Part shown: piece after piece, positions 1 through 56,900 of the stretch
How the letters are laid out: the number at the start of each line of letters is the position of its first letter
Position numbering within the stretch: position 1 is the first letter of the stretch
Virus record (IMG/VR): IMGVR_UViG_3300037722_001090
DNA from: a virus
Lineage: Duplodnaviria > Caudoviricetes
Strand: one strand, 5' to 3'
Length of the DNA: 64,000 nucleotides
The notes under the pieces: model-generated
What the model saw: the letters and a program-made list of their open reading frames with translations, nothing else
What the model was told of the DNA's origin: nothing
The model's database searches: none
Translations under genes and position numbers: made by a program

Positions 1-249
1 TTTAACGAATCCTCGTATCCAGAGTTTAGTTAGAATACCTGATTTACGCATAATTACATGAGCTGCCATCATGTTATACTCATACATGACAAACAACTTA
101 CGTAACATACGATACTCACGATGACTATAGATCCAATTAAAGAACACAAGTGCAAGAATAGCAAGTATGTTCCAGAACCAGAACTCGCTGAATATATGTA
201 AGTAAGGATTTATATATGCAACGGCTTTATCGAACCATTCTCTAAACAT
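1..249 (-). CDS. Hypothetical membrane protein, runs off the window edge (MFREWFDKAVAYINPYLHIFSEFWFWNILAILALVFFNW...)
   Basis: Hand-translated. ATG at 249 is preceded by AAGGAG; open to position 1; contains a hydrophobic helix. Confidence 0.7.
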   Translation of the reverse strand, partial: MFREWFDKAVAYINPYLHIFSEFWFWNILAILALVFFNWIYSHREYRMLRKLFVMYEYNMMAAHVIMRKSGILTKLWIRGFVK

Positions 250-258
250 GGCATCTCC

Positions 259-411
259 TTAAATAGTTATCCATCCAGCTGCTTGAGCTTTAGCACCCAA
301 GAAGGCAAAGACAGTTCCTTCAACAGTCAGGTGCAGTAAGTAACCGACAAGCACCCACATTGCCGTAGCAAGTTTGTGATGTCTGCGCATGAAGCGTCTG
401 AAGTTTTGCAT
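259..411 (-). CDS. Small hypothetical membrane protein, 50 aa (MQNFRRFMRRHHKLATAMWVLVGYLLHL...)
   Basis: Start re-assigned to ATG 411 (SD AGGAGG). The longer track ORF crosses a terminator. Confidence 0.75.
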   Translation of the reverse strand: MQNFRRFMRRHHKLATAMWVLVGYLLHLTVEGTVFAFLGAKAQAAGWITI

Positions 412-444
412 ATAGTGCCTCCTGCATAGGTTAAGGGACCATCG

Positions 445-453
445 AGAATAGCA
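445..453 (-). promoter_or_regulatory. Candidate extended -10 promoter element TGCTATTCT
   Basis: An identical 9-mer lies at 1085-1093. Both sit at the same offset (34 nt) from their start codons and resemble TGnTATAAT. Confidence 0.45.
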
Positions 454-459
454 AGTGAA

Positions 460-488
460 TAAAAAAATAGGGGACCCGAAGATCCCCC
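460..488 (-). terminator. Rho-independent terminator
   Basis: GGGGATC-TTCG-GGTCCCC hairpin followed by TATTTTTTT, just after the stop at 497. Confidence 0.85.
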
Positions 489-496
489 ATTCTTGT

Positions 497-1051
497 TTAC
501 TTCTGCAGCTTGGCCGCTTCTTCCGCCTGCTTGCGGAGCGCGAATGCCGAGAGGCCGCCTTCTTCGCCGGTACCAGCGGTGGTCGACTCATCTTCGAGCC
601 GGTTCGTGGTTTTGGCCTTGGGCTGCTTCAAACAGCTCAGGTCGATGTCTTCCGGGGCGATGAACGAGGGGAGCGTGGCAGCACTGCCTTTGAACCGATC
701 GAGCAGCGTGCATTTGCTGTACTCCTGATACTCCACGACGTATTCGCCGCCGGTAGCCGTTTCGCCCCGGTATTCGCCGTGTTTTTCCGACTTGAACGCG
801 AAGGCAATGCGGTCGCCCTCCAAAACCGACAGCCAGGCCTTGTCACGGGCATTTTCGAGCGATCCGTAGATCACGGCACGATTGCCCGAAGCCAGACCGA
901 CGTTGACGATGAAGTCACTGCCGGATTTTTCGTTCCCACGGAGATCTGTTTTGCTGATCCGGGCGACTTCTTCGTCCAGGACCAAACAGATTTTCCCACG
1001 CGCTCCGGAGAGCAACTCGGTGAGTTCTTTGGTGAACTGTTTCTTTTCCAT
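497..1051 (-). CDS. Hypothetical protein, 184 aa, beta-rich with acidic tail (possibly OB-fold/SSB-like)
   Basis: ATG 1051 with SD AAGGAG; markedly GC-rich codons; own terminator. The fold call is a guess. Confidence 0.75.
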   Translation of the reverse strand: MEKKQFTKELTELLSGARGKICLVLDEEVARISKTDLRGNEKSGSDFIVNVGLASGNRAVIYGSLENARDKAWLSVLEGDRIAFAFKSEKHGEYRGETATGGEYVVEYQEYSKCTLLDRFKGSAATLPSFIAPEDIDLSCLKQPKAKTTNRLEDESTTAGTGEEGGLSAFALRKQAEEAAKLQK

Positions 1052-1084
1052 AACGTACTCCTTCAAAAAGTGTAAAAAGGTTCA

Positions 1085-1174
1085 AGAATAGCACGTACTC
1101 ACACACCCATAGTGTAAGTCAGTAGCTCTTTTTTCTCATAGATAGCACAGGACACGCACTCTCGTAGATAGCAC
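1085..1174 (-). promoter_or_regulatory. Three tandem GTGCTAT motifs (candidate promoter/operator array)
   Basis: ATAGCAC at 1088, 1142 and 1168 (+ strand); CTC(A/G)TAGATAGCAC direct repeat at 1135-1148 and 1161-1174. Confidence 0.5.
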
Positions 1175-1340
1175 GAATCTACGCATACGTACACTGTATT
1201 AGATATATAGACCTTAGGCCCTTCGTGTGATACCAGGCCCGTCGTAAGTGTAGAAGCGTCAAGGCTTCAATAGCTATACTCTGCTTGCTGGCTCCAGGTC
1301 AACGGTGGAGCACCATACCGTACAGCTCGCATTATATAGC

Positions 1341-1375
1341 TAATAAAAAAAGGGAGCCCGTTAGGACCCCCTTTT
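1341..1375 (-). terminator. Rho-independent terminator
   Basis: GC-rich imperfect hairpin followed by TTTTTTTATTA on the minus strand. Confidence 0.75.
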
Positions 1376-1384
1376 AATTACATA

Positions 1385-1654
1385 CTAATACCTACGCCAA
1401 TAACAACCCTCACCTATTGATATTCCATGAGACGTTGGCCCACAATAATGACCATCAGTAATAGACGAAGCTCTACTCCCTGTAGGAAGAGGATCCTTAC
1501 CAACTAAGAACTTATTCATTCTTAGTCTACCAATCTCCTTATCAATAGCGTTCATTCTATTCTTCACCTTCTGTCTATCTTCTTTACTGATGGGACGACC
1601 AAGTCTTAATTCAAGATCAGCACTCTCCATAAACAACGCATCTACTCTGTGCAT
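1385..1654 (-). CDS. Hypothetical protein, 89 aa
   Basis: ORF track; follows the RNAP gene and ends before a terminator. Confidence 0.6.
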   Translation of the reverse strand: MHRVDALFMESADLELRLGRPISKEDRQKVKNRMNAIDKEIGRLRMNKFLVGKDPLPTGSRASSITDGHYCGPTSHGISIGEGCYWRRY

Positions 1655-1710
1655 GATATAAACCTTTCTAGGCAGTTTAACGACATGCCCAGGTCAGTAA
1701 GAGTTAACTA

Positions 1711-4700
1711 TTAGAGATCGCCTTCACCCTGAGCCATGATACGATCCATGTACTCAGTAGCCTCACGCTCGATACGTTTACGGATATTCTCCGCCACAGC
1801 AATCTCAACATCCTTAATGTACGGATTGTCAGGATTCACACGCTTAGCAAGAGGAATGATGAACTTATCCGCATCGAACAGCCAGAACAAGCTGCCAGGC
1901 TTACTGGTAATCTTATCCGCACCAGTATCCCTGTCCTGACCAGACCAAGTGCCGAAAGACTGAACACCAATCGACAACATGAGCTGCTCCTTAAACTCAT
2001 CCATGAAGAAGCGATAATCAGGCTTACCGAAATACTTCTTACAAGCAAACTCAGCAATGATATCAATGTAACCGCGATAATCATTGGCAAGTGCAGCCCA
2101 GGCAATACGACGAGCCCTCTTGTCCACAATGAGAGACTTGTCATCCTGCAGAATCCTGGAATGCAGAGAATACCCCTCAATGATGGTACCATAAAGATTA
2201 CCACCATTAATGAGCAGGCTAGTAGCATTCAATACGAACTGAGGAGTCCAAGGAAGCTCAGCTTTGAGCTGCCTGAATTCACTATGAAGTGCTACCTTCT
2301 TTGCCCATTCAGTACGACAAAGATTACGCATATCAGTACTGTCCGAATGACGAGTAGTACAACTCACATCACGCAGAACATTAAGGACATGGCGGTAAGG
2401 GTTATATTCACTGCACTTGATATCCTGCAACTTACGGATAATCGCCTTCATGCAAAGATGCGGAATACCCTTAACGCTACTGTTCCCTCCATCCTTACGG
2501 AGAGCGCAGTAATCCTGAGGAGCAGAACGCAGCGGCATAACACGGCCATTAACACCATAAAGGCGAGTAATGGTTGCTGCAGCATCTTCCTCAGCAGAAA
2601 TGTCATGATGCTTCATGCCATCAATTGCAAGCTGGACAATCTCACCCATATGCATGATCTGAGCAGGAGTGAGAGGAGTACCATTCCACCAATTCTCGAA
2701 GATGATCTGCCGAGACAGGTTATCCAGAGAGCCAGTATCAATAGCACTCTGAGCAATAGCCAAGTAAGCCCTATAGGTCTGAGTGACAAATGCTTCTTCA
2801 CTCATAAGGCCTTTGGCTTTAGCCTTCTTCTCCTTAACAGGAGGGAGAGGACGCTCAGTTACAGGGAATGCGATGTCAGGATGAGGGAATACAATACAAG
2901 TATCCCCATCGACATCACCGAACATAGTCCAGAGAGCCCTTGCGCTAAGCTCAATGCAATCCGTAGTACCATTCAACTTGTGATGATGAAACTCCATGAA
3001 GTTACCATCACCAACAACCGGATTACGACCAATGTTCCATTTAGTATCGGGCCCAAGAAGCTTCGTGAACTTCTTCTTGCTGGGACCGTTGAACATATAG
3101 ACCTTCTCATTAGTCTCCAGAAAATGCTTATACTCGAGCAGGTCAAGCTCTTCATTAACCTCCAAGTAGAAGGCCAAATCAGACAGCCGCACCTTATACA
3201 CATTCTGGATCAAGTAAGTCCAAATACGAGCCATCATAACAGTAATGCGACTCGTATACATAGGAACACGCCAATCACCAAGCTCTTCGTCATATTTAGT
3301 GAAGAGGAAAGCCTTAAGTGGCTCACTAATAGCATCGTCCATAGTGGCTTCAGCATCCGACTTCAAGATACTGAGATAGCCACTAGCCTTACCTGCCAAT
3401 GCATCAACTACGATCTGCGCATTAGGAATCGCAGTCTCCACAATACGAGACACAAGCTCACTGTCCAAACGAACAGACTGAACACCAAGCGACGACTTTC
3501 CATCACTAACCTTGATTGCAACAATACGCAATGCAGGTTTCTCAGGAGTAATGGGAATAAGCACGATATCACCATGCTTGAGCCGGCCCTTCTGCGTTTT
3601 AAAGTTACCAAGACCCATGATAGCATCCTGATCCTCAAGATTGAAGCCATACTCTTCAACCTTCTCCTCATACCTGTTCACATGAAACATACACTTGCCC
3701 TTGAAGCTAGGCATCACATCACCAACCTTGAATTGGTAGATAGAAGGATTGGTCACGGCCAACTCAGCCATTACCTTAACATCAGCCTCATCAAATACAT
3801 GATAGCTCCTCGCCTGAGCATTTCCGTTAACACGCTCCTCTTTAGGAGGCTTAGGCACAGTCACTTCCTTGCCAGCAGTAACTGCAGCATTATACTCCTC
3901 CATCTGCTTAGCAAACCTCTTAAGCTCACTGACAGGAGTGTACCACATGCTAAGACAAGTAAGCATGTTACCATCGTTAAGAGGGTGTCCGCCCCAACCA
4001 GTCATATGTTCGGTGCGAGGAGTGTGACCAACAATCTCATCATTAATAACGCGCACACGAAGATACTGAGCATTCTCCGTACTTGCGATCTGATAAGGAT
4101 TGGGCGTCATGAACGTACCAGTAGGCTTAAACGGATTGTCATGATTACGAGGATCGTCACCCATCAACTCTGTCCAATCCTCAAGATATGCCTTACCAAG
4201 CAAAGGTTCACTCTTCTTAGCATTACCAAGTACGTGCTTGGCTTCACTAGCGGCTACATCCTGCATACGCTTGAAGATCTTAACCCTGTTGTTAGAGTCG
4301 TGCTCTTCAATAGACATAGGGATAACCTTGCCTCCCTTGCACCACTCATAGAATGGCGAGTTCGAGGCAATCTCAATCATGGCATCAGTACCATTAATGA
4401 CAAAGTCCGTACCGATAACCACCTCCTTTTGTACCGGATCACCATGCTCATCAATGCCTGCTTGCGTTTCAGTGATCTCAATCACCGCACCAGTATAGAC
4501 AATGCCCTTAACTTTCTCAAGCGTAGGGCTAAGTCCATGCAACCTGATCTTCGGATCATTCTCCGAGACAGGGTTAACTGCACCACTATACTCTTTAGGC
4601 TTAGTGGCGATAAGGCTGAGCTTCCTGTTCTTCATGGCATCTCCCTTGTTGTGGGCCTCCAGTTTGTCTTTGAACAGTTGCACCTGCTCTTTAACGGTGC

Positions 4701-5322
4701 CCTGTTTGACGAAGGCCGAAATTTCAATCTCTTTGAATCCAGCCAATTTGAGAATCTGCTGGTCCGACTTACCCCTGATGAGTGCTTCGGTTGCGCGACG
4801 GGCCTTTCTTCCCTGAGCAACAAACATGTCCTGAATGATCCTGTTCATATCTGCCAATTTGTCATTGCGCTCCACCTTGGAACGGACATCTTTGAGCTGG
4901 AACTCATAAATAGAGTTAACCAACTCCATGCCTTCGAGCTTTCTGAACTCAGACCGATGCATACCGATCTTATAGGCAATGAGACGTAAGTCGTCATCGC
5001 CACCCTCTTTGTTGAGGATGTTGATCAGCGTGGTCTTGTTCTTGAACCCTTCCGGATCCTCGAATTCCTCAGGCAGCAGAGAACGGCTCATGAACTCATA
5101 AATCACGATGCGCAGACGATCAGCAGTTGCCGCATTGTACGTGGTGTACAAAGGAACGCCGAGGTCCTTCGCGATCTCCTTGAGGGCAGTGATACCCTTT
5201 TCATCAAGACCCTTCTTCTTGATGATGACTTTAATCTGCGTCTGGTTCATGTGTACCTCCTTGTGGTTAGATTTCTTGCCATTAACGCCATTGCCATTGG
5301 TGTTACCGTTGTGCTGTGTCAT
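1711..5322 (-). CDS. Single-subunit double-psi-beta-barrel RNA polymerase (YonO / QDE-1-RdRP-like), probably non-virion
   Basis: GRNPVV (R766) lies 37 aa before GDVDGD (D803; nt 2902-2916), matching the beta-prime R-x-P...DxDGD arrangement. YQFKVG...FKGKC resembles the cellular-RdRP Q-x-R-x-G...KG motif, and QLAIDGMKH follows. Start set at ATG 5322 (SD GGAGGT). Confidence 0.85.
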   Translation of the reverse strand: MTQHNGNTNGNGVNGKKSNHKEVHMNQTQIKVIIKKKGLDEKGITALKEIAKDLGVPLYTTYNAATADRLRIVIYEFMSRSLLPEEFEDPEGFKNKTTLINILNKEGGDDDLRLIAYKIGMHRSEFRKLEGMELVNSIYEFQLKDVRSKVERNDKLADMNRIIQDMFVAQGRKARRATEALIRGKSDQQILKLAGFKEIEISAFVKQGTVKEQVQLFKDKLEAHNKGDAMKNRKLSLIATKPKEYSGAVNPVSENDPKIRLHGLSPTLEKVKGIVYTGAVIEITETQAGIDEHGDPVQKEVVIGTDFVINGTDAMIEIASNSPFYEWCKGGKVIPMSIEEHDSNNRVKIFKRMQDVAASEAKHVLGNAKKSEPLLGKAYLEDWTELMGDDPRNHDNPFKPTGTFMTPNPYQIASTENAQYLRVRVINDEIVGHTPRTEHMTGWGGHPLNDGNMLTCLSMWYTPVSELKRFAKQMEEYNAAVTAGKEVTVPKPPKEERVNGNAQARSYHVFDEADVKVMAELAVTNPSIYQFKVGDVMPSFKGKCMFHVNRYEEKVEEYGFNLEDQDAIMGLGNFKTQKGRLKHGDIVLIPITPEKPALRIVAIKVSDGKSSLGVQSVRLDSELVSRIVETAIPNAQIVVDALAGKASGYLSILKSDAEATMDDAISEPLKAFLFTKYDEELGDWRVPMYTSRITVMMARIWTYLIQNVYKVRLSDLAFYLEVNEELDLLEYKHFLETNEKVYMFNGPSKKKFTKLLGPDTKWNIGRNPVVGDGNFMEFHHHKLNGTTDCIELSARALWTMFGDVDGDTCIVFPHPDIAFPVTERPLPPVKEKKAKAKGLMSEEAFVTQTYRAYLAIAQSAIDTGSLDNLSRQIIFENWWNGTPLTPAQIMHMGEIVQLAIDGMKHHDISAEEDAAATITRLYGVNGRVMPLRSAPQDYCALRKDGGNSSVKGIPHLCMKAIIRKLQDIKCSEYNPYRHVLNVLRDVSCTTRHSDSTDMRNLCRTEWAKKVALHSEFRQLKAELPWTPQFVLNATSLLINGGNLYGTIIEGYSLHSRILQDDKSLIVDKRARRIAWAALANDYRGYIDIIAEFACKKYFGKPDYRFFMDEFKEQLMLSIGVQSFGTWSGQDRDTGADKITSKPGSLFWLFDADKFIIPLAKRVNPDNPYIKDVEIAVAENIRKRIEREATEYMDRIMAQGEGDL

Positions 5323-5362
5323 AGACACCTCCAAAGAATGAATATGCGATATGCATACTACG

Positions 5363-5397
5363 TTAAAAAAAAGGGCAGACCCGAAGGCCCACCCTTT
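5363..5397 (-). terminator. Rho-independent terminator
   Basis: AGGGTGGGCC-TTCG-GGTCTGCCCT hairpin followed by a T run. Confidence 0.85.
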
Positions 5398-5401
5398 AAT
5401 T

Positions 5402-5617
5402 TTACTTCTTCAGCATTTGTCTTTGCAGATCAATACCGATCTGTGCTGCAAGATCGAAGTATTGGATCATCCTAGCATACCTATGCATATGCCTTTCATA
5501 TCCTTCCTTGTCGCCAATCTGAAGCGACAGCAATGCTGCTTCCAGATGAATCCTGGCATTCCTATGGTACCAGATGCCAATTCTAATGTACCGCCTCTTC
5601 TTCTTATGGTTCTTCAT
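5402..5617 (-). CDS. Basic hypothetical protein, 71 aa (MKNHKKKRRYIRIG...)
   Basis: Start re-assigned to ATG 5617 (SD AAGGAG); overlaps the upstream gene's stop. Confidence 0.7.
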   Translation of the reverse strand: MKNHKKKRRYIRIGIWYHRNARIHLEAALLSLQIGDKEGYERHMHRYARMIQYFDLAAQIGIDLQRQMLKK

Positions 5618-5867
5618 GACAAGCTCCTTTCTCTTCATCAAGGCGAGTATAAATCTCAATCACTGTCAATCTAGACTGACCAGTGATAGCCATAGCGTAC
5701 AATACACTATAGCCGTTTTCATAACACTGCTCCACACTCATTTGCATAAGACCTCCTTTCATAATGCGAATAAGCCCCTGACTACACTTAGGACACAGAT
5801 CGTCCGCGACATCATACGTATTAAGTTCCATCACACTATAACACGTACTGCAAACAAACTTAGCCAT
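5604..5867 (-). CDS. Zinc-ribbon protein, 87 aa (CSTC-x15-CPKC)
   Basis: ATG 5867 with SD AAAGGAG; two CxxC pairs. Confidence 0.7.
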   Translation of the reverse strand: MAKFVCSTCYSVMELNTYDVADDLCPKCSQGLIRIMKGGLMQMSVEQCYENGYSVLYAMAITGQSRLTVIEIYTRLDEEKGACHEEP

Positions 5868-5928
5868 CACACCACTCCTTTCTTCCCCTACACCCACTAT
5901 AAAACCTACACTTGTTTCTTTTGCACAT
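5860..5928 (-). CDS. Cys-rich micro-protein, 22 aa (MCKRNKCRFYSGCRGRKEWCDG)
   Basis: Hand-translated; SD AGGAGG; its end overlaps the next gene's start. Confidence 0.5.
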   Translation of the reverse strand: MCKRNKCRFYSGCRGRKEWCDG

Positions 5929-6030
5929 ACGCTTATTCCTCCTCTTCCTCTTCGTGGCAGCACTCACAGGTAAAGCCAGTAATCTCACCAATACACCAGT
6001 ATTTATCTTCTTCACACAGTTAGTTAATTG

Positions 6031-6174
6031 TTAGATCCAGCTGTTAAAGGTAGCAGTAGCAGCACTACTACCCATTTTAAGCGACAAGTAACGCACAGCT
6101 TGCACATTACTAATGGCTCCAGCTTTGAATAGCAACTGGACACGGAAGATACGACGGCCTGCATGCTTGCCCAT
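6031..6174 (-). CDS. Hypothetical protein, 47 aa (MGKHAGRRIFRVQLLFKAG...)
   Basis: Hand-translated; SD AAAGGAG; abuts the upstream ORF's stop. Confidence 0.65.
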   Translation of the reverse strand: MGKHAGRRIFRVQLLFKAGAISNVQAVRYLSLKMGSSAATATFNSWI

Positions 6175-6176
6175 AC

Positions 6177-6251
6177 TCACACTCCTTTCAGTTCAGGTAC
6201 AAATACAATAGCCATCCAGAACGACACCCACACTAATGCAACAATAGTCAT
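6177..6251 (-). CDS. Hydrophobic micro-peptide, 24 aa (MTIVALVWVSFWMAIVFVPELKGV)
   Basis: Hand-translated; SD AAGGAG; first ORF of its cassette. Confidence 0.55.
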   Translation of the reverse strand: MTIVALVWVSFWMAIVFVPELKGV

Positions 6252-6287
6252 GGCTCTTCTCCTTAGATATATGTGCATAATTGCACC

Positions 6288-6320
6288 TAATAAAAAAAGG
6301 GGCTAAAGAACAGCCCCTTT
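6288..6320 (-). terminator. Rho-independent terminator
   Basis: AGGGGCT...AGCCCCT hairpin followed by TTTTTTATTAGG. Confidence 0.85.
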
Positions 6321-6325
6321 AATTA

Positions 6326-6583
6326 CTACCCGATCATTCTAAGTCCTCTAGCGTGAGGAACAATCTTGACAGTCGCACTTTCATACTTGCCAAGGACCTC
6401 ATACAGCTCCTCCAGATGATCGAAATCACCCTTAAGAGTACGATTAATTACCTTTTTGCAAGCCCCATCCTTAGCAAGGCTTCTCCAAGAGGAAGTTATC
6501 CTTCTTTCCAGTTGCCCAATCTTCTGATCAAGGATATTGAGCTCGTCTTCAACAACCATTTTGTTCGCTGCGATAACCATCAT
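6326..6583 (-). CDS. Hypothetical helical protein, 85 aa
   Basis: ORF track; SD GGAGGT; flanked by terminators. Confidence 0.75.
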   Translation of the reverse strand: MMVIAANKMVVEDELNILDQKIGQLERRITSSWRSLAKDGACKKVINRTLKGDFDHLEELYEVLGKYESATVKIVPHARGLRMIG

Positions 6584-6630
6584 GTTACACCTCCAAGGAA
6601 TTTGATATCACCGATATGGCGATATACCTA

Positions 6631-6659
6631 TTAAAAAAAAAGGGACCCGAAGGCCCCTT
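6631..6659 (-). terminator. Rho-independent terminator
   Basis: AAGGGGCC-TTCG-GGTCCCTT hairpin followed by a T run. Confidence 0.85.
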
Positions 6660-6663
6660 GATT

Positions 6664-6861
6664 TTATATAACTCTTAGCATCATCACATAAGTGCCTCCA
6701 ATTACATTATAGTTTTTAATAACTATATTTACCTCTTCGCATAACTTTAATTCCCTTTTGACCTTTTCGCCTAATATAATACCATCATATTTAGCACCAA
6801 AATCTACAACAACATAAGCACCAGTCTGCACAACAACACCTCTCTTTACAGCACCTAACAT
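6664..6861 (-). CDS. Stand-alone S1-domain protein, 65 aa, resembling ribosomal protein bS1 domain 1
   Basis: GAVKRGVVV..YVVVDFGAKYDGII..ELKLCEEVNIVI aligns by eye with E. coli bS1 GSIVRGVVV..VVLVDAGLKSESAI..EIQVGDEVDVAL (recalled from memory). SD GGAGGT before ATG 6861. Confidence 0.7.
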   Translation of the reverse strand: MLGAVKRGVVVQTGAYVVVDFGAKYDGIILGEKVKRELKLCEEVNIVIKNYNVIGGTYVMMLRVI

Positions 6862-6918
6862 AACTACCTCCAAGTATAAGAATTAAACTTACGCACACAT
6901 ACTATATATGTACATATC

Positions 6919-6947
6919 TAATAAAAAAGGGCCTATTGTAGCGCCCC
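6919..6947 (-). terminator. Probable rho-independent terminator
   Basis: Weaker GGGGC...GCCC hairpin followed by TTTTTTATTAG. Confidence 0.6.
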
Positions 6948-6953
6948 ACATTA

Positions 6954-7097
6954 TTACTTGTACTGAGTATCGCGATAATGCTTCCAAGTACGAAGATCAT
7001 GATTATAATTATGATTTACGCGCAGACGACGCACACGCACTTGAAGTGCCTCTTTACGTAAATTCCAACCACCACATACTGGACAAGTATGAGCCAT
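6954..7097 (-). CDS. Basic hypothetical protein, 47 aa, with CPVC knuckle
   Basis: Hand-translated MAHTCPVCGGWNLRKEALQVRVRR...; SD AAGGAG; bounded by terminators. Confidence 0.7.
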   Translation of the reverse strand: MAHTCPVCGGWNLRKEALQVRVRRLRVNHNYNHDLRTWKHYRDTQYK

Positions 7098-7131
7098 AAT
7101 AGTTCTCCTTGTTATGGTACATTATTGTACC

Positions 7132-7162
7132 TAATAAAAAAGCGGGGCAATATGCACCCCGC
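7132..7162 (-). terminator. Rho-independent terminator
   Basis: GCGGGG(T)GCATATTGCCCCGC hairpin followed by TTTTTTATTAGG. Confidence 0.85.
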
Positions 7163-7176
7163 CTCTATATAACCCC

Positions 7177-7350
7177 CTATGCCATGCATCTACCAGCATA
7201 GAGCTGCATGAAGACATCTCTCGGCATGAGATCTCCGCCTATGTATGTGCCCATATCTTGCACTATGCATGCCTCAGGTAGGAAGGCCTCTGCAGCCTCC
7301 CTATCGCATCTCTCGATAGCTTCTTCAATGGACCTACAGATGATAGTCAT
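7177..7350 (-). CDS. Hypothetical protein, 57 aa (MTIICRSIEEAIERCD...)
   Basis: Hand-translated; SD AAAGGAG. Confidence 0.7.
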   Translation of the reverse strand: MTIICRSIEEAIERCDREAAEAFLPEACIVQDMGTYIGGDLMPRDVFMQLYAGRCMA

Positions 7351-7380
7351 GGTATCTCTCCTTTAGTTAATGGTTAATAG

Positions 7381-7491
7381 TTAGATATATAGGCATAGTG
7401 CGACAAGCACCATACCCACAACGAACGGGTACAACTCTTGGGCCATGATACGCCCCTTCCCAACCTTACTCTTACCCTGATACATACGCAT
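7381..7491 (-). CDS. Small protein, 36 aa, with C-terminal hydrophobic helix
   Basis: Hand-translated MRMYQGKSKVGKGRIMAQELYPFVVGMVLVALCLYI; SD GGAGGT. Confidence 0.6.
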   Translation of the reverse strand: MRMYQGKSKVGKGRIMAQELYPFVVGMVLVALCLYI

Positions 7492-7522
7492 AGTACACCT
7501 CCACTATATAGGCATGATTGCC

Positions 7523-7552
7523 TAATAAAAAAAACGGGGGTTATTAGCCCCC
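7523..7552 (-). terminator. Rho-independent terminator
   Basis: CGGGGGCTAATAACCCCCG hairpin followed by a T run and ATTAGG. Confidence 0.85.
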
Positions 7553-7575
7553 GCCTCTATATAAGCCCCTTAGTA

Positions 7576-7854
7576 CTACATGCTTATTAGGTTCTCGCGT
7601 AAACAGCCTAACCTACATGCTGCTTGATATAGTAATCCTCTATCTACAAGATCACTAACCTTCTCCAATTCAAACATACATCCAGTAATAGCCAGCTTAT
7701 ATACTGGTCTAATCTTAGTAGCACCACTTAAGGACACACAATACATGGTACTGTTATCGCCCTTATATGCACACCTACTGTGCCTATTAACCTCATCACT
7801 AAGAACAACAAACTCGCCTACTACATTGTCATATGTTACGCTCAACATTGTCAT
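7576..7854 (-). CDS. Hypothetical protein, 92 aa; first gene of the leftward arm
   Basis: ORF track; SD GGGAG; ends at a terminator. Confidence 0.7.
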   Translation of the reverse strand: MTMLSVTYDNVVGEFVVLSDEVNRHSRCAYKGDNSTMYCVSLSGATKIRPVYKLAITGCMFELEKVSDLVDRGLLYQAACRLGCLRENLISM

Positions 7855-7943
7855 GATGATTCTCCCTGTTAATTGTTAGAAGTCGACCCCGGGGTTGCAA
7901 ATAGTCCATACCGACCTACATCTATATACCTACAGTCCTTTAA

Positions 7944-8011
7944 TCACTCCAGCCCATTTCAATCTCATATCTAGGCTTTTTAGATCATCACTTCACTCCA
8001 GCCCATTTCAA
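7944..8011. repeat. Perfect 19-bp direct repeat TCACTCCAGCCCATTTCAA x2
   Basis: Copies at 7944-7962 and 7993-8011, in the divergent gap between the two arms. Confidence 0.85.
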
Positions 8012-8270
8012 ATCCACTATAGACTTAAGCTTTTTACTCCACTCCTTTACACGAAACCTTTAATAAGACTTTTCCTTATTAAAACTTTCCCCATATTCGA
8101 TGCCGGGGTCTGTGACAAAAATCTTTTCCATTTTCCCCTATACGTTTCCCTCATATAGGACCAAAGTCATTTTGATTTCATATTTGACCTTTCTAATATG
8201 CACACTTAGCCTATTTCCCTTATTAACATACTGTACATAGATATGTACTTATTTTTTTTAGGAGAACATA

Positions 8271-48483: not shown

Positions 48484-51400
48484 ATGGCAAACAATCCATA
48501 CTATGAAGAAAATAGCGGCTTTGGTAGTGTATTAAAAGGTGCATCTTTTGCTGGCGCAGCTGGTGCATCTTATATGGCATATAAGAACCCTGAAGCTACT
48601 ACCCGTGTATTTAATCGTGTAGTTAATTCTGTTGCACCACTAAAAGCACCTGAGCTTAATCCATATCAAAGCAACATAGTTAGTGCTAGAGAGGCAATCT
48701 TCAGTACTATGGAAGCCAGAAATATACGTAGAGTAGCTTTAGATAAAGATATGCAAGCAAGAGCTTTACAGACAATCGGTAATGTAAATAACTGGGGTAC
48801 TGTAAGTGCTGTAGGTGCTGGTATAAAAGGTGGCAAATCTGATTCATTTAAAAGCCTAACTGATATTCTAGACATAGAAGGTAATGAAATAGGGACAAAA
48901 ATACATAACGCACTAGAGAAGAGATTTAATTCTAAAATCGATGCTCCTAAATTTAGTGGAACAAGAGGAACCTGGAAGATAGCAGGAGAAGATTTGTCTA
49001 TTGATTTCTCTAAAAAAGGACTAGATTCAGGACTAGGAAATTCATGGTTCAAGCGCGTTGGAGAGTCTTATTATGCTTCACCTTATCAGTCTAAAATGGC
49101 TAATCGTGGCGGAGGGAAGCTTGGATATGATGTAATGAGTCCAAATGAATTTGTATTAAATGTGCTACAAGAAGAAAATGCTGGGAGTGGAAGACTGGCA
49201 TATGTAGAGAGTCCTACTAAGTTTAGGAACGCATATGAAAAGGTAATAGGAGAGAAAGTTACTGGACTAAGTGGACATGACGATGCTGTTAAGTATGCTG
49301 TTCAGCAAGTACGTAAAGAAATAGAGTTAGGATCTAATGCTAGTGTTAGCAATGTAAGAACTATGCAAAAGGCTTTAAAGAAAGTATTTAATACAGATAC
49401 TATGTTTGTAGAAACTGACCCAGTAAAGCTTGGCTTATTTGGCAGTGAAGTTCGCGTAGAAGAATATTCTAGATATATACTTGGTAATACAGAACCTGAA
49501 TTTAAAGGTGTAGGTTCAAACCGCGTAGGCAGAAACATGAATAGTCTTACAGGAGGAAGCGTAAACATAGAAGGTAATGCACTTAAAGTAGCATATAATA
49601 TTCCTCATGATGCAAGAACTGATAGTTCTTTAATTAGGATTGTTAATGGTAGTGGCGCTACGTTGAAAAGTAAAAATGCTACATTTATGCAAAAAATGAT
49701 GTCTCTGTTTGGTGGATATAGGCTTGGACAAGATCCTTCATCTGAATTTGCATGGGCTGTTAGACCTACTGTTCTTCCTGTTATTGCGGAAGGAGATAAG
49801 TCTATGAAGGGTGCTTTATGGGCAGATGATAATACCGTTATTAGAAAAAATGGCACTCAGGGTATTTCTATGGGAAAGGAATATTTCAGAGGAACAGGAA
49901 CAAAAAGAATTGAAGCACACAGACTTGAAACATTAAGGCATATGTCTTTTATTGACGACACTAAGATTACTGAAGCTGCTGCTTCAAGCTCAGATTATGT
50001 AAAGGGTAAAATATATTCTCAGCAAAATAAAGGCATTTATAATATGACAATGGCTCTTAACCCGTTTTCTGAAGAGTCTATTCAAGTAAGTTCAGGTATG
50101 AGTAAGCATATGAAAGTTCTTATTCCAAAAACAGCTACTGTGGACACAATTGCACTTAAAGGAGAAGAATCGTATAGGAGGTCGCTACTTACACTAATGG
50201 ATGCAAACGGTGTATTAGATAAGGAATCATTTACTATAAAAGAAATAATGGAAAGTAAAGCTTTATCAGAAAGAGTTAGTACTGGTCAATCCAAAATTAA
50301 GATAGGAAGAGGGACATATCTAGGCAGAAAGAACATAGGTATGGAAATATCTAATGCTGAAGACTTTTACTCTACATTTGAAAGAGACGGAGAGATTATT
50401 AAAGCAAAAGTAGATATGTATATAGACAGTACAGACTTTAATCAAATGGTCGAATCAAATCAAAGAATGATGGGTGAAGGACATAAGCATGCAGGAGGAG
50501 TTAAATATATAGCTAAGGCCATGGATGACCCTGCTAAAGTTGCACTTACTGGTATAAGAGCCCGTGGAGCTTATGCAGTTGGCGATGACGGATTACTTAA
50601 TAGTTTATATGCAAGTGCAGGACTAGGTAATAAGCAAGAAGCTACTATTTCTCTTGGTATGTTTAAAAAAACATTCCCTAAGATTTCTAATAACAGCCTT
50701 CTTCTTGGTAAAGATTCACCTGAACTATTACACTTTACACAATCTGCACTTGGATGGCAATCCTTACAAAGTAGCATGGATATAACATTAAGTAAAAATG
50801 CCGCTGATCATTTTGTCGGTAAATACGTAAATGATGCATCAAAAGTATTAGGCAATCAAGATTATTATACTGGAAGAGGTGCATCTAAAAAGTTTAGCTT
50901 TAGTAAGGCTATGCGAGATGGAGCAATATCTTTTACTCAAAGAACAGAATCAGATGCTGCATTTGCACAGCAATATCAAGACACTGTACAGGTGCTTGGT
51001 ACTGCGCGAAGAGAATGGGGTAATAATCGTAAAGTTGCACACATAGAAAGCTTCTCTACGACTAATGCTAAAGATGCTGCTAAAGTTATAGATAATCAAA
51101 TTGAAGCAATAGACAATATGGGCAAGCTTGCAAAAGGTGAATATGCTGTAAGGCTATTTAATAAACAGGTAGATGCAAAAGAGCTTGGAGAACAAGCCTT
51201 AGTTAGGACAAGAGTATCACAAGGTAGTAGTGCTGGTCTTGGATCGACAAAAGCACTCACAATGGGTATTCTTGGAGGACTTCAACCTCAGGAACAAAAC
51301 TGGCTAGCTCTTGGTGGTGAATTTAATAAGATGCGTATTTCATGGAGAGATATGTATCACTTTACAGACAAGGCAGATATACTAAGAGATATTTCAGTTA

Positions 51401-53973
51401 GAAGCTTAACAGATGCAGATACTAGCGCAACTATGATTAAGCTAATGAGTGACTCTGCTGTAGGGCATAATGTTACTTCTGCTGTTAATGCATTTGAGAA
51501 GAAATATGGTAAAATTCCAAAACTAAAAAAGACAGAAGAGATTTTGGAAATGATAGGTGGTGATGCCGCTATGGTTCCAGGTGCTATTAGAGATCCTGAA
51601 TTCTTAGCAACAAAAAGCTTCTTAGGTAATAAAAAGAATGAGTTCGGTTTTATGGTCGAAATGGGTGAGCGTAATGTTTATATTCCAGGTAGAGATGTTT
51701 GGAAAGGATATGCAACTGATGAGGGGATGGCTACATTTGATTCTTTATTTGCAGAAACTCATAACTTACTTTTGAATAAAGCTCTAGGATCGAACATACA
51801 TCAAGATAGAGATGAGTACCAAAATTGGGTTAAAAGAATAATCAATGAAACAGGAAGCTCAAAAGAAGGACTACAAAGAACAATTTCATTATCTATTGAC
51901 CATGCAGTTGCTGCAAAACATATAGAAGATCCATCGTTTATTCATAATAAAATTATGATTGGTGCTATGGAGAGCTGGAAAGGTAATGCAGACAAGAAGT
52001 TAATTCCTGGATATGTAGCAAAAGCAGAAGCTCTAGAAAATACATTTGGTAATATAGCTAAAATCGGAGAAAAAGATTTTAGTTCAAGTATTAAACAGCT
52101 TATAACTGACACTAAGACAATAGCTAGTAGCCCTGGAAGCAGACAGACAATGCAAGAGGTTCTTACCTCACAATATGGTGAAGATCATTTTCTACAAAAG
52201 TATGCAAATAGGATGAGTGCAAACATGGACAAGGAAGGTGTAGCCAGTCTTGTTAAGGATATTACAACGGATCATGTTGCTAGTAGTAAGCTACTTATGA
52301 GCAAAATAAAAGAATATGCATCAACAGGGAATGAGTCTTTATTTGGAGAGATAGACACGCTTGTAGGAGGTGCACATAAGATTTTTGCCGTTAGACATCC
52401 TACACTTTATACTGGATCTTATTCAGGATTAATAGCTCTTATTGATAGTCAAATTGAAGGAACACAAAAAATAGCAATAGCACACAGAGCTAGTAAAAAT
52501 ATGGCGTCGGACTGGGACGGAGATACAATTAACTATGTTGACCTTAGATCTAAACTGGGAAGACAAAAAGCATTGAATCTTATTAATACGGATCAGAAAA
52601 TTGCATATGGTGTAATGAGTTCTAAAGTGCAAGACAGAATGACTGGAATTTTAACTGGCAAAGGAACTAATGCTCCATCCGAGGCCCTTGCTTTTTTTAA
52701 CTCACTAGACTCCCCTGCAGCACTAAATACAGTAGCTAAAAATATTTTACATGATGCTCCTGGCTCAACAGCTATTTCATCGTATTTTACTAAAGCAATG
52801 ACCGGTCAATTTAATATCTCTGCAATGGAAACAAAAAACTATATAAGAGATTTATCTGATAGTAAAAACTTATCACAAGAGCATATGAAAGAGCTAGGTC
52901 ACTACTTTGGAGTAATGGCATCTAAGAACTCTGAGCAGGAAGTAATCTCAGCTAAGCATGCAGAGACATGGCTTAAGAATATGAACAAAAGTGAAAGTAA
53001 GATGAACTATCTTACTAATTTAATAGGCGCTCAATCTGGACAAGAACAAATAGCGGAGTCTATTAGAGAGCTTGGATCAGTACATCCTATTGCTCAGATG
53101 GCAGCAATGAACGCCAAAGGTAAAGATAATGAGAAGTTTGCTGGTATGGTTTCTGACTTTATGGATTTTAAGGTAGGATGGAAACAGCTTGAGCAGCCAA
53201 GATTCGAAACTATGTGGGAAGGACTAGGTCTTGAAAAATCTCATGGAGTTAATACCTCAGCAGCTTGGGACATGTACGACTCTTGGTTAAAAGAAGGTGA
53301 ACATATTTTTGGTAATAAAATGGAATCTTCTGTTGCCGCTGGTATATCAGAACTCAGCTATTTAGAAGTTACTAAGCAGGCAATGTTTGATAAGAGATCT
53401 TCTGCAAGTGAAAGTATAGAGGCCATGTTTAGCCGTGCATTAGAGTTTATGAAAATGAGCGATAATGATAGGGCTGGAGATGCTGCAATGGGCGTATTAG
53501 ATAAGCTCGGATATAGGAAAACAGCACTACAGATGCTCACTTTACATGAGCAACAATCAAATATGGCACAAGCAACTCGCAAGATAGCTGGCTTTGATAC
53601 AGTATCTAAAGCAGCACAGTGGATGGTAGAAAAACCTGTTAGATTAGCTGGAGCTGTAGGTATTGGCTTATTAGGCATGACTGCAATTAACCTACTAAGC
53701 GGAGATGGTGGCCTTGAAGATCCAAATGATTTACCTAGTGTTAGTAATCCGGCATTTACAGGCGGTGGTGGAAATGGTATGATGAATACACATGGAGTCC
53801 AGCCACACGTAGGCGTAAACGCTAATGTAAACTTATTAACAGACAGTAACGATAATCCACAAAGTGCACTTAGTTACATTTCTAATATGTTTGGCTATAG
53901 TCAGGGCAGCGTTGTATCTGTTATGCATGATGGTGAAAACCCATACAAAAAAGATATGATGTATTATAATTGA
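48484..53973 (+). CDS. Putative virion-packaged RNA polymerase (double-psi-beta-barrel), 1829 aa
   Basis: VRHPTL (R1304) lies 39 aa before SDWDGD (D1343; nt 52510); hydrophobic Gly/Ala helices at both termini; embedded in the tail module. Confidence 0.75.
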   Translation: MANNPYYEENSGFGSVLKGASFAGAAGASYMAYKNPEATTRVFNRVVNSVAPLKAPELNPYQSNIVSAREAIFSTMEARNIRRVALDKDMQARALQTIGNVNNWGTVSAVGAGIKGGKSDSFKSLTDILDIEGNEIGTKIHNALEKRFNSKIDAPKFSGTRGTWKIAGEDLSIDFSKKGLDSGLGNSWFKRVGESYYASPYQSKMANRGGGKLGYDVMSPNEFVLNVLQEENAGSGRLAYVESPTKFRNAYEKVIGEKVTGLSGHDDAVKYAVQQVRKEIELGSNASVSNVRTMQKALKKVFNTDTMFVETDPVKLGLFGSEVRVEEYSRYILGNTEPEFKGVGSNRVGRNMNSLTGGSVNIEGNALKVAYNIPHDARTDSSLIRIVNGSGATLKSKNATFMQKMMSLFGGYRLGQDPSSEFAWAVRPTVLPVIAEGDKSMKGALWADDNTVIRKNGTQGISMGKEYFRGTGTKRIEAHRLETLRHMSFIDDTKITEAAASSSDYVKGKIYSQQNKGIYNMTMALNPFSEESIQVSSGMSKHMKVLIPKTATVDTIALKGEESYRRSLLTLMDANGVLDKESFTIKEIMESKALSERVSTGQSKIKIGRGTYLGRKNIGMEISNAEDFYSTFERDGEIIKAKVDMYIDSTDFNQMVESNQRMMGEGHKHAGGVKYIAKAMDDPAKVALTGIRARGAYAVGDDGLLNSLYASAGLGNKQEATISLGMFKKTFPKISNNSLLLGKDSPELLHFTQSALGWQSLQSSMDITLSKNAADHFVGKYVNDASKVLGNQDYYTGRGASKKFSFSKAMRDGAISFTQRTESDAAFAQQYQDTVQVLGTARREWGNNRKVAHIESFSTTNAKDAAKVIDNQIEAIDNMGKLAKGEYAVRLFNKQVDAKELGEQALVRTRVSQGSSAGLGSTKALTMGILGGLQPQEQNWLALGGEFNKMRISWRDMYHFTDKADILRDISVRSLTDADTSATMIKLMSDSAVGHNVTSAVNAFEKKYGKIPKLKKTEEILEMIGGDAAMVPGAIRDPEFLATKSFLGNKKNEFGFMVEMGERNVYIPGRDVWKGYATDEGMATFDSLFAETHNLLLNKALGSNIHQDRDEYQNWVKRIINETGSSKEGLQRTISLSIDHAVAAKHIEDPSFIHNKIMIGAMESWKGNADKKLIPGYVAKAEALENTFGNIAKIGEKDFSSSIKQLITDTKTIASSPGSRQTMQEVLTSQYGEDHFLQKYANRMSANMDKEGVASLVKDITTDHVASSKLLMSKIKEYASTGNESLFGEIDTLVGGAHKIFAVRHPTLYTGSYSGLIALIDSQIEGTQKIAIAHRASKNMASDWDGDTINYVDLRSKLGRQKALNLINTDQKIAYGVMSSKVQDRMTGILTGKGTNAPSEALAFFNSLDSPAALNTVAKNILHDAPGSTAISSYFTKAMTGQFNISAMETKNYIRDLSDSKNLSQEHMKELGHYFGVMASKNSEQEVISAKHAETWLKNMNKSESKMNYLTNLIGAQSGQEQIAESIRELGSVHPIAQMAAMNAKGKDNEKFAGMVSDFMDFKVGWKQLEQPRFETMWEGLGLEKSHGVNTSAAWDMYDSWLKEGEHIFGNKMESSVAAGISELSYLEVTKQAMFDKRSSASESIEAMFSRALEFMKMSDNDRAGDAAMGVLDKLGYRKTALQMLTLHEQQSNMAQATRKIAGFDTVSKAAQWMVEKPVRLAGAVGIGLLGMTAINLLSGDGGLEDPNDLPSVSNPAFTGGGGNGMMNTHGVQPHVGVNANVNLLTDSNDNPQSALSYISNMFGYSQGSVVSVMHDGENPYKKDMMYYN

Positions 53974-53980
53974 GGTAGAT

Positions 53981-56900
53981 ATGGCAATTTCTAATAAAGA
54001 GTTTATTGATGTGCTTAAAGCAGAAGGCTTATGGCCACCACAGGCAAATGCTGAAGCAGCATATGGAGCAGTTGAGTTTCCAGTAGGAAAACTTAAAATT
54101 GATGGAGATGCCTCTTTTACATCTATTTATGTAATGGACGGAGATACCATTGAGTTACATAAGCCCGGATATGTATTTAGTACAACAGGAGATCATGGCA
54201 CAGTACCCGCCGAAGGCATGGATGGCATGGCAACCTCTCTTCGTTATTATGGCTTAGATACAAAAGAGACAGCAAAAGAGGGCACAGGTAAAGCTGCAGA
54301 GCCATATGCTAATTGGCAAACTAGGGCAAACTTAGCCTTATTTAAATATGCAGAAAGAACAGGTAAAAATGTTGATGTTACTGGATACAATCAAGATGCT
54401 TACAAGAGAACAGTTGCTGCAATAAATATTGATGGTACGGATGTAGCTGATCTCTTTGTACGAAATGGTATATCTGCCGCAGGTACCGCCGCAGAAGCAG
54501 GCTTTGTACCTGAAGGGGGGATAACTGTTCGCTCACTGCAAGAATCAATGAATGAGGCAGCAACTAAAGGCTGGGGTCTATGGAATAAAAATCAAATTTA
54601 TGATGTCTTAAGAGATGTAAATAAAGAGACTGAATATCTTGATGGTTATATTAATGATCGATTTGGTAAAGCTAAAAGCATGACAGACGATACTGTTAAG
54701 CTTGGAGACGTATATCTTGATATACCTCCTACACACATAAGTATTAATCAGTTAAGAACATCATATTCTACACCACAATTTGGTGGCGAATCAAAGCCAA
54801 CATCTACAAGTACAGCGCGAACAACTATAAAGCTAAACCTTATTTTTAATGGTGAAGACTCAGTAAACGATGATTTTAAAAGAATCTATTGGCAGTTTAT
54901 CTATTGTCCAATTAACTTACTGTATTCAAAAGATATATACGAGAAGGTTGTTTCAGATAATCCTTATATAGCTAGGATGAATACTGCCACAATTAACACT
55001 GAAGAATCGTCTTCTTCTAAGTCATCTTCGTATTTTATCCCTGTAACTATGGATAGTTGGACCGTATATACTATTGAGGGTCATCCAGGGTCTATTGGAT
55101 GTACAATACAGCTATCTATCTTTAACTATTCTGCATACTTTGAAGGTGCAGGTAATGGCGTTGAATACTATACATATAGTGATAATCCAGGAAAGCATGG
55201 TAATGCAGTTAGATACACTAAGCACCTAGAAGAAGCTATTCACCCATATAACCAATATATCATGAAGCACCTCGGTAATAGCATTCAGCACTTTGATGCA
55301 TCAGATAGTCGCACTCTTATTTTTAAGGTTGAAGATAATAAATCTAGATTTGAAGGTAAACAAGAAGATATTAATGAGGATGTTTCAGATTTATCTGAAT
55401 ATCTAAAAGTTATACTTGAATCAGAAGTTGATGAATTAATGGTTAATGGTTCTGTAACTTTTCATAATAACTTTGCATGGTTACCAATTATAGGATATAC
55501 GCAACCAACAGCACAGTATATTGGTCCTGGTGAAACCAATATGTCACTAAGTATTAGAACTAAAAACAATAAAACCATATCAGGACTATTAGCAACATTT
55601 GGTGAAATGGTTCTTGATAGAACTAAACATACATACTATGATGATAGATACTTAGTGTCCAACTCGCTGTCTAGGCTATGTAAGGCTTCTGTTTGTTCAC
55701 TACGTAATATCTCAATTACAAACGTAGATCATCACCCAGGATGGTCCGATATTAATATTCAGCTCTCTAAGTCTTCCTATGCAGATCATCAGGATGAAGT
55801 AAACCCAGCTGCAGAATTTGATGAATATTTTGGACTACAAAGGTTGATTAAAGCTGCAAATGTAGATGAGGTTATGGAGGCTCTTGAAAGAGAACTTAAA
55901 CTAGCTGACATGACAGATATATCTCTTCCTGCAGAAGATGATTTGCTAGGACAAATGTGTATACTCTCTGGTATAATAAATGCACATTCATACATTAGTG
56001 ATGAAGCATACCTTGGGTACAATGAAATACTTTCTAATATACGTGCTTTTAAAGCAACTATTAATGATAAAGACATGAAAGAGCTTGGATTTTCTAAGCC
56101 TCTTATGGGAGACATAAAAAGTCTAGAGGTAAAAGGTACGGACATAATTGATCGTATGTTCATTCAGTCTCTACCTATATCTGTAAAATCTGACCCTAAA
56201 CAAATGAAAGCAATAGTTGATTTCGAAACATACTATAATGCTAAGAAAAAAGCAGGTGTTGTTAATGAATTTGATTCTTTTGAAAGCGCACTTAGAGGAG
56301 ATAATTCTAAAGAGGGTTTTGAATTAAGAGCAGAGATGATAGATAGGTATTTACCTCTTGATGAAATGATAGATATGACAGGTACTAAAAATAAAATAGT
56401 AGATGTAAATAAACACCTATTTAATGCCTGGGAAGAGTATTGGGGAGATAGACATACAGTAAGGTCGCTAAGCAGTGTATATATAAAAGATTTATTAGCT
56501 AGTGGTGTGGACACATCAGTATATGATGAAGAAATGGAAAATATAGTATATAGGATACTTAGATCCATATCTAATGAAGGCATGATGTTAAGTTACCAGA
56601 AGGCTTGGAATCCGCTAGCTCTTTCAATGGCTCGTGGTCATGCAATTGTTTTTAAGTTTACTGGTACAATATTAGAAGCACAAATAATTAAAGCAGCCCT
56701 TAGGGTTGGAGATGAGACATCATCTATAATTGGAGAGGCAGCTAGTTTTGGTACGCATGGATCTAAAGCAAGAAAGTTTTTTAGTTTACAAAACAATGTT
56801 AAATATCCATCTATTTCAGTAAAGTTAACTTGTCATAATAAGGATGTTGCATATAGTGAATATAGCACTAGTATGTCAGAGGCATCAAAAGAGGCATCAT

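Follow-up and report, generated by a model that had tools for sequence, protein, structure and literature searches.

The S1 fold usually binds nucleic acids, and poxvirus K3L is a viral S1-fold decoy of eIF2α. K3L is named in PMC6375957; genes for S1-domain proteins and for ribosomal protein bS1 are already known from phages (PMC7162821, PMC13157829), and, since S1 domains occur everywhere, an 'S1' annotation in a phage tends to be dismissed as ambiguous (PMC7162821, PMC6375957). In Escherichia coli bS1, attachment to uS2 depends chiefly on the N-terminal helix (F5, F9), and the core of the first repeat (D1, or OB1) adds a D39-R208 contact and K43, lodged in the zinc pocket of uS2 (PMC4288201); the K43 contact has been confirmed and the D39 bridge was not seen (PMC10123108). 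The loop carrying D39, G41 and K43 forms interface II with the Qβ replicase subunit (PMC4176380), and RNA binding by OB1 is undetectable (PMC10123108, PMC4176380). Isolated pieces of this region have contrasting properties. With the helix included, N-terminal fragments of S1 are dominant-negative on translation, whereas S1(19-106) shows no binding to 70S ribosomes and no displacement of native S1, and D1 stripped of the N-terminal segment leaves ompA translation uninhibited in E. coli (PMC4288201); D1 alone does not bind Qβ replicase (PMC4176380). The uS2-bS1 complex also works off the ribosome, repressing rpsB (PMC10931766).

bS1 is a recurrent phage target: Qβ replicase binds D1-D2, T4 RIII binds D5 and T4 ModB modifies D2 (PMC4176380, PMC10931766), and the D39-K43 loop is an interface used by phages. 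While these proteins bind or modify the bS1 of the host, the phage described here encodes a piece of bS1. The S1 proteins of huge phages (PMC7162821) and the bS1 of PhiMa05 (PMC13157829) are likewise S1 homologues in large phages, with a proposed role in host translation; they are described as possessing up to six S1 domains or as rpsA itself, whereas the protein studied here is a single D1 of the non-RNA-binding type. Moreover, huge phages with S1 genes rarely have Shine-Dalgarno (SD) sequences (PMC7162821), unlike the SD-rich phage analysed here.

The window, a stretch of 64,000 nucleotides, belongs to a tailed-phage record (Caudoviricetes; IMGVR_UViG_3300037722_001090) of 107,910 bases, with an estimated completeness of 52%. 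A contig of 205,327 bases also codes for the same 65-aa protein, which puts the probable size of the phage genome at about 205 kb. For the terminase and the major capsid protein, the nearest counterparts are those of Moorella phage MTATph1, Bacillus phage 0305phi8-36 and Acinetobacter phage ME3, all distant (~30% identity).

Table 1. The 65-aa gene and neighbouring sequence elements (window positions)
Feature	Position	Strand	Remarks
65-aa ORF, bS1 domain-1-derived S1/OB barrel lacking the N-terminal anchor helix and the C-terminal linker	6664..6861	minus	
Shine-Dalgarno GGAGGT	6866..6871	minus	4 nt upstream of ATG; read from sequence
Terminator-like hairpin (UUCG loop) and T-run, downstream of the 65-aa gene	6632..6659	minus	z -3.0
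Upstream terminator-like hairpin and T-run, end of preceding gene	6923..6947 (approx.)	minus	hairpin family D6
AT-rich palindrome, candidate phage-specific promoter element	6906..6917	minus	putative function
Codons 17-29, β2-β3 hairpin with D-x-G-x-K loop	6775..6813	minus	best-kept segment

Identity of the 65-aa protein

An earlier note on this DNA had recognized, by eye, a close match between the 65-aa product and bS1 D1. We compared the protein with one HMM per repeat (D1-D6), built from a collection of 97 bS1 proteins (Bacillota, Desulfobacterota, Bacteroidota and Chloroflexota for the most part) after removal of those found through the query's own motif; such per-repeat profiles are an established method for typing S1 domains, with a threshold of about 10 (PMC2760812). 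The score on the D1 HMM was 20.9 bits (E 2.3e-5), reached by 0 of 2000 shuffles, as against 1.1 for the reversed sequence and 0.3-2.0 bits on the D2-D6 HMMs, and the protein is the top D1-HMM match over the six frames of the whole 108-kb contig. The best 50 pairwise matches, with all S1 repeats compared, are all D1s. Among NCBIfam models, only three match, all of them RpsA models and all through the first repeat (TIGR00717, positions 19-71, E 0.0075), and a separate search with a profile of real D1s, three rows of which were motif-selected, recovered the protein at E 2.4e-6. In a maximum-likelihood tree (75 alignment columns) it lies inside the D1 clade (96/87) on a long branch of 3.5 changes per column, its exact place within D1 being unsure. 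Chloroflexota D1s scored best (19.1 bits) and those of Bacteroidota almost equally (18.0), a pattern that, with the long branch in the tree, gives no host assignment.

At the level of sequence, these results identify the protein as derived from bS1 domain 1. The resemblance noted by eye is thus real and D1-specific, and D1 profiles and the tree, rather than generic OB folds, give its best placement; the word 'close' was nonetheless too strong, given that identity to real D1s is 13-31% (about 25%) and that searches of Pfam, PHROGs and PDB sequences returned no informative match.

Structural models are compatible with an S1/OB β-barrel. AlphaFold2 supplied with a D1 alignment predicts a five-strand barrel at pLDDT 84, a value biased by that alignment, the single-sequence prediction reaching pLDDT 42; an independent Atlas model has a TM of ~0.8 to S1 domains. 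In a fold comparison (VIA), the protein matched residues 34-105 of Mycobacterium smegmatis bS1 (Z 9.3, rmsd 1.7, 63 residues aligned), tied with other S1 domains, as matches less than 1 Z unit apart are ties and S1 subtypes are not separable by fold. Fold searches accordingly place S1 domains of NusA (top in Foldseek), RNase R, CvfB-like proteins and Rpb7 level with bS1. This equality, together with the presence of the VDFGxKYxG motif in unrelated Xaa-Pro peptidases as well, could be taken to mean that the protein stems from another S1-family or generic OB protein, such as the S1 domain of NusA, and resembles D1 by chance. Profiles of the other families, however, gave only 0.1 (NusA), 1.3 (PNPase), 4.1 (RNase E/G), 4.3 (Tex/YugI), 4.7 (RNase R) and 5.5 bits (CvfB), compared with 12-23 bits for size-matched D1 subsamples of 8 or 23 sequences; the NusA profile comprised 23 sequences, and the sets for RNase E/G, Tex/YugI, RNase R and CvfB were small. 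The D1 score also remains at 15 bits after K24 is swapped for Gly, the tree placement is within D1, and the fold ties do not discriminate between subtypes. We regard such an origin as highly improbable; it is largely excluded for the families profiled above. The small stand-alone S1 barrels GSP13/YugI and YabR are similar in architecture, but they are D3/D4-like RNA binders, and the YugI-type profile has the low score given above.

Gene organization and the surrounding putative early block

The ORF is on the minus strand, with an ATG start codon preceded by an SD (Table 1). An alternative upstream TTG (6873) is an unlikely start because it overlaps the SD. Gene callers predict the same 65-aa gene on 10 public metagenome contigs of this phage, whose sequences are essentially identical. 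The terminator-like hairpin lies directly 3' of the stop codon, and 0 of 200 shuffles fold equally well; the upstream hairpin is the weaker of the two (8 of 200 shuffles). This arrangement is consistent with a monocistronic gene, as had been proposed, while the other half of that proposal, early expression, would follow from position and cassette structure.

In the first 8,300 nucleotides of the window, a block of small minus-strand ORFs runs up to the gene for a 1,203-aa protein that contains the motif DVDGD. In the small-gene cassettes, a terminator-like hairpin with T-run is followed by a short second hairpin, an SD and an ATG, a layout that resembles the hairpin-promoter early regions of phages. 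At least six early cassettes (5335-8258, minus) carry the short hairpin between terminator T-run and SD, with stems of 5-8 bp, loops of 4-5 nt and z of -2.0 to -3.2 as ssDNA, and these hairpins are candidate phage-specific promoters. In the cassette of the 65-aa gene this place is occupied by the AT-rich palindrome, the weakest of the set (z -0.98, against -2.0 to -3.2 in six sibling cassettes). Strong SDs precede most early cassettes, and 40 of 58 late-block ORFs are SD-led. With a GC of 0.33 and a GC3 of 0.25, the 65-aa gene resembles late genes and differs from most of its early neighbours; for comparison, GC is 0.41-0.47 in the early block (1-8000) and 0.32-0.42 in the late block (10000-64000), and the GC skew switches near 9-10 kb, at the strand divergence.

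The 1,203-aa protein (1711-5322, minus) has no match in Pfam, PHROG or PDB and belongs with three homolog clusters; DVDGD is invariant across three homologs of 43-44% identity, two of which have an extra N-terminal cpYpsA domain. Judging by this motif, it is putatively an RNA polymerase of the single-subunit, two-barrel type. Downstream of its gene, a conserved protein of 165-185 aa (497-1051, minus; L008:7468-7965 and L006:7381-7917 in related phages), with an acidic, flexible C-terminus and possibly an SSB-like OB fold, is encoded by a gene that is unusually GC-rich in the window (GC3 0.72). For the 85-aa neighbour of the 65-aa gene (6326-6583, minus), all four differences from strain variant L005 are at the third base of a codon, as would be expected under purifying selection. 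The 65-aa gene itself shows zero differences in L005 and hence yields no dN/dS.

Retained and lost features

The 65-aa chain starts at about position 19 of E. coli bS1 and stops just past strand 5. A stop codon 12 codons upstream of the ATG closes the frame, and a profile of the N-terminal segment (NTS) found nothing significant in the 108-kb contig, which bears out the reported absence of the N-terminal helix. A split bS1, with the anchor helix supplied by a neighbouring gene, is unsupported, as the contig contains no NTS-like peptide. The C-terminal linker helix is likewise absent, and the D2-D6 repeats gave no match across six frames of the 108-kb contig (about 52% complete). The boundaries are almost equal to those of the engineered E. 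coli fragments S1(19-86) and S1(19-106) (PMC4288201), which are also D1 cores without the N-terminal segment; the engineered fragment is devoid of ribosome binding and translation effects, whereas the phage version occurs in nature, has diverged strongly and has an expression cassette to itself.

Like bS1 D1 (E. coli residues 21-86; TIGR00717; PDB 4TOI, 8A3L), the phage protein is a predicted barrel without canonical RNA-binding residues. It keeps equivalents of G21, G26, D39, G41, K43, the consensus Gly46, I48 and G80 (E. coli numbering), its D20, G22 and K24 corresponding to D39, G41 and K43, so that the D-x-G-x-K partner loop is retained. Altered positions are S44, E45 (to D), E52 (register uncertain), G65 (to C), L84 and S85; the β3-β4 loop is shorter than in bS1 D1, and 9 of 15 highly conserved D1 columns are changed. 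Conservation is uneven along the chain: identity to the D1 consensus is 7/13 in residues 17-29, which alone score 12.2 bits on the D1 profile, versus 4/36 in residues 30-65, and the D1 signal amounts to 16.1 bits for residues 1-29 and 3.6 bits for residues 30-65. K43 is diagnostic for D1 (92 of 95 D1s; Gly in D3/D4). Retention of the D20/K24 loop is suggestive of selection on a contact surface, and no more than suggestive because no part of D1 is more conserved than this loop in any case, and the retained invariant residues are mostly glycines, only the Asp and the Lys being polar.

Since the loop is the one that contacts uS2, the protein might be thought to take the bS1 site on the 30S subunit, evict host bS1 and thereby favour strong-SD phage mRNAs. 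The SD richness of the phage would suit such an antagonist, and helix-containing N-terminal fragments of E. coli S1 do behave in this way (PMC4288201). It is, however, precisely the dominant-negative helix that is missing, no separate helix peptide was detected in the 108-kb contig, S1(19-106) has no such effect, and compensating new contacts would be required. Eviction of full-length bS1 is probably not feasible because the anchor is absent, and we consider strong antagonism very unlikely. The suggestion in the earlier note that the protein biases translation toward strong-SD mRNAs loses ground for the same reason: it needs ribosome occupancy, and once the N-terminal segment is removed, E. 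coli D1 fails to bind ribosomes, as seen with S1(19-106) and 70S, and fails to inhibit translation (PMC4288201).

The phage protein also departs from bS1 in charge, a point that, like the missing linker, the earlier note did not raise. The phage protein is basic (net charge +3, pI 9.2), whereas sampled D1 cores are all negative (median -7, maximum -1, pI 4.3). This reversal, the presence of four Tyr and one Phe, and the general tendency of the S1 fold to bind nucleic acid raise the possibility of a repurposed small basic ssRNA- or ssDNA-binding protein, acting as an RNA chaperone or as a helper of the hairpin-type early promoters or of the putative phage RNA polymerase; the gene sits among hairpin cassettes, upstream of the DxDGD-motif protein. 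Y16 may even occupy the β1-β2 aromatic position of RNA-binding S1 repeats, the Y290-equivalent being Tyr or Ala depending on the placement of one gap. Conversely, three of the four canonical RNA-contact residues are missing (D4 residues F293, H305 and R341 are replaced by V, L and T), OB1 has no detectable RNA binding (PMC10123108, PMC4176380), and a gene this AT-rich drifts to Lys, Ile, Tyr and Asn regardless. Relatives with the same polymerase-like gene have no 65-aa gene in the early block seen, and the protein is therefore not a core transcription cofactor. A nucleic-acid-binding role is the main rival to the reading favoured below, though less likely than not.

Distribution

Searches of 5.8 billion proteins and of 1.84 billion representatives, at near and longer lengths, returned only the protein itself, an absence that is weak evidence, as short diverged proteins are easily missed. 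Scans of IMG/VR and JGI with the 65-aa protein or with the polymerase-like alignment gave nothing. Two D1-profile matches in IMG/VR proved to be ordinary host-type rpsA at contig ends, and tblastn of real D1s against INPHARED matched an rpsA-annotated record and unannotated contigs. The D1 profile found no match in MTATph1, ME3 or 0305phi8-36 (the same kind of profile does detect the gene of its own phage), nor in the DNA searched of the related phages identified through the polymerase-like gene (L006, L008, L009, L287). Of these, L287 covers the entire block from the strand switch to the polymerase-like gene. Two small β-rich proteins that flank the polymerase-like gene of L008 (755-1039 and 6307-6576) are OB-like by eye but match neither D1 nor the 65-aa protein. 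The gene is lineage-specific, being confined, as far as these sequence searches reach, to one phage lineage, and we found no report of an anchor-less, D1-only phage form in the literature covered, which was incomplete.

Such a distribution would also be expected if the captured fragment had at most a minor function and were drifting in an accessory block of fast turnover. The singleton status, the nine altered conserved columns (including G65 to Cys), the AT-rich codon use unlike that of most early neighbours and the weakness of the promoter-like hairpin all point in this direction. Against drift, some 3.5 substitutions per site have accumulated without a stop or frameshift and with the hydrophobic strand pattern intact, and the fragment is trimmed exactly to the barrel and furnished with a dedicated SD and terminator. 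A functionless fragment is in our view distinctly unlikely: because the frame has remained open, the SD strong and the barrel intact over this divergence, we infer long selection on the fold.

Proposed role

The reading that we favour, if tentatively, is that of a low-affinity protein-binding decoy or adaptor that uses the retained D-x-G-x-K loop. The 5' part of a host rpsA would have been captured long ago, cut down to nothing but the D1 barrel and provided with a separate expression cassette in a putative immediate-early block, so that the protein would be made within the first minutes of infection. Through the retained loop, it would then bind a D1 partner at low affinity. The most plausible partner is host uS2, contacted at its acidic zinc pocket and either free or on bS1-free 30S subunits; the alternative is a phage protein with an evolved affinity for D1. 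The protein cannot replace bS1, because the RNA-binding repeats are absent; as a decoy or adaptor, it would rather tune bS1-dependent processes. At the level of concept, K3L sets a precedent for viral decoys with an S1 fold, although it is a eukaryotic mimic.

Several observations weigh against a decoy: E. coli D1 without the N-terminal segment is inert on ribosomes and translation, D1 alone misses Qβ replicase, the charge is +3 as compared with a D1 median of -7, and the gene is a singleton missing from the syntenic block of relatives. The earlier proposal that the protein competes for bS1 partners stands in part, fitting the retained D20/G22/K24 loop but not the failure of D1 alone with Qβ replicase. 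Co-folding with a stand-in uS2 and Zn gave a score of 0.19 (mark, 0.32), which we count neither for nor against binding. A more specific version, which we consider unlikely, is an anchor-independent D1 mimic evolved by the phage: new basic and aromatic contacts would dock the D-x-G-x-K loop into the uS2 zinc pocket early in infection, blocking either bS1 docking or the free regulatory complex of uS2 and bS1. In such a mimic, viral translation decoys of the S1 fold would have their bacterial counterpart.

Unlike for most phage 'S1' annotations, the subtype is assignable here: the protein represents the first repeat, which binds partners and not RNA, and its ends nearly coincide with the boundaries of an engineered fragment that is inert in E. 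coli. If the natural protein is active, the secondary contact between D1 and uS2 could become a stand-alone regulatory interface or, alternatively, the protein would expose a new D1 partner.

Other features of the phage

Far from the early block, on the plus strand (42579-61396), lie three adjacent very large ORFs of 1,963, 1,829 and 2,471 aa. The only Pfam family among them is SNase, as the N-terminal domain of the third, and all three are candidates for injected virion proteins. As for habitat, the record name of L006 (DOMB18-1) presumably refers to hydrothermal sediment of the Guaymas Basin and would then be a hint at where this phage group lives.
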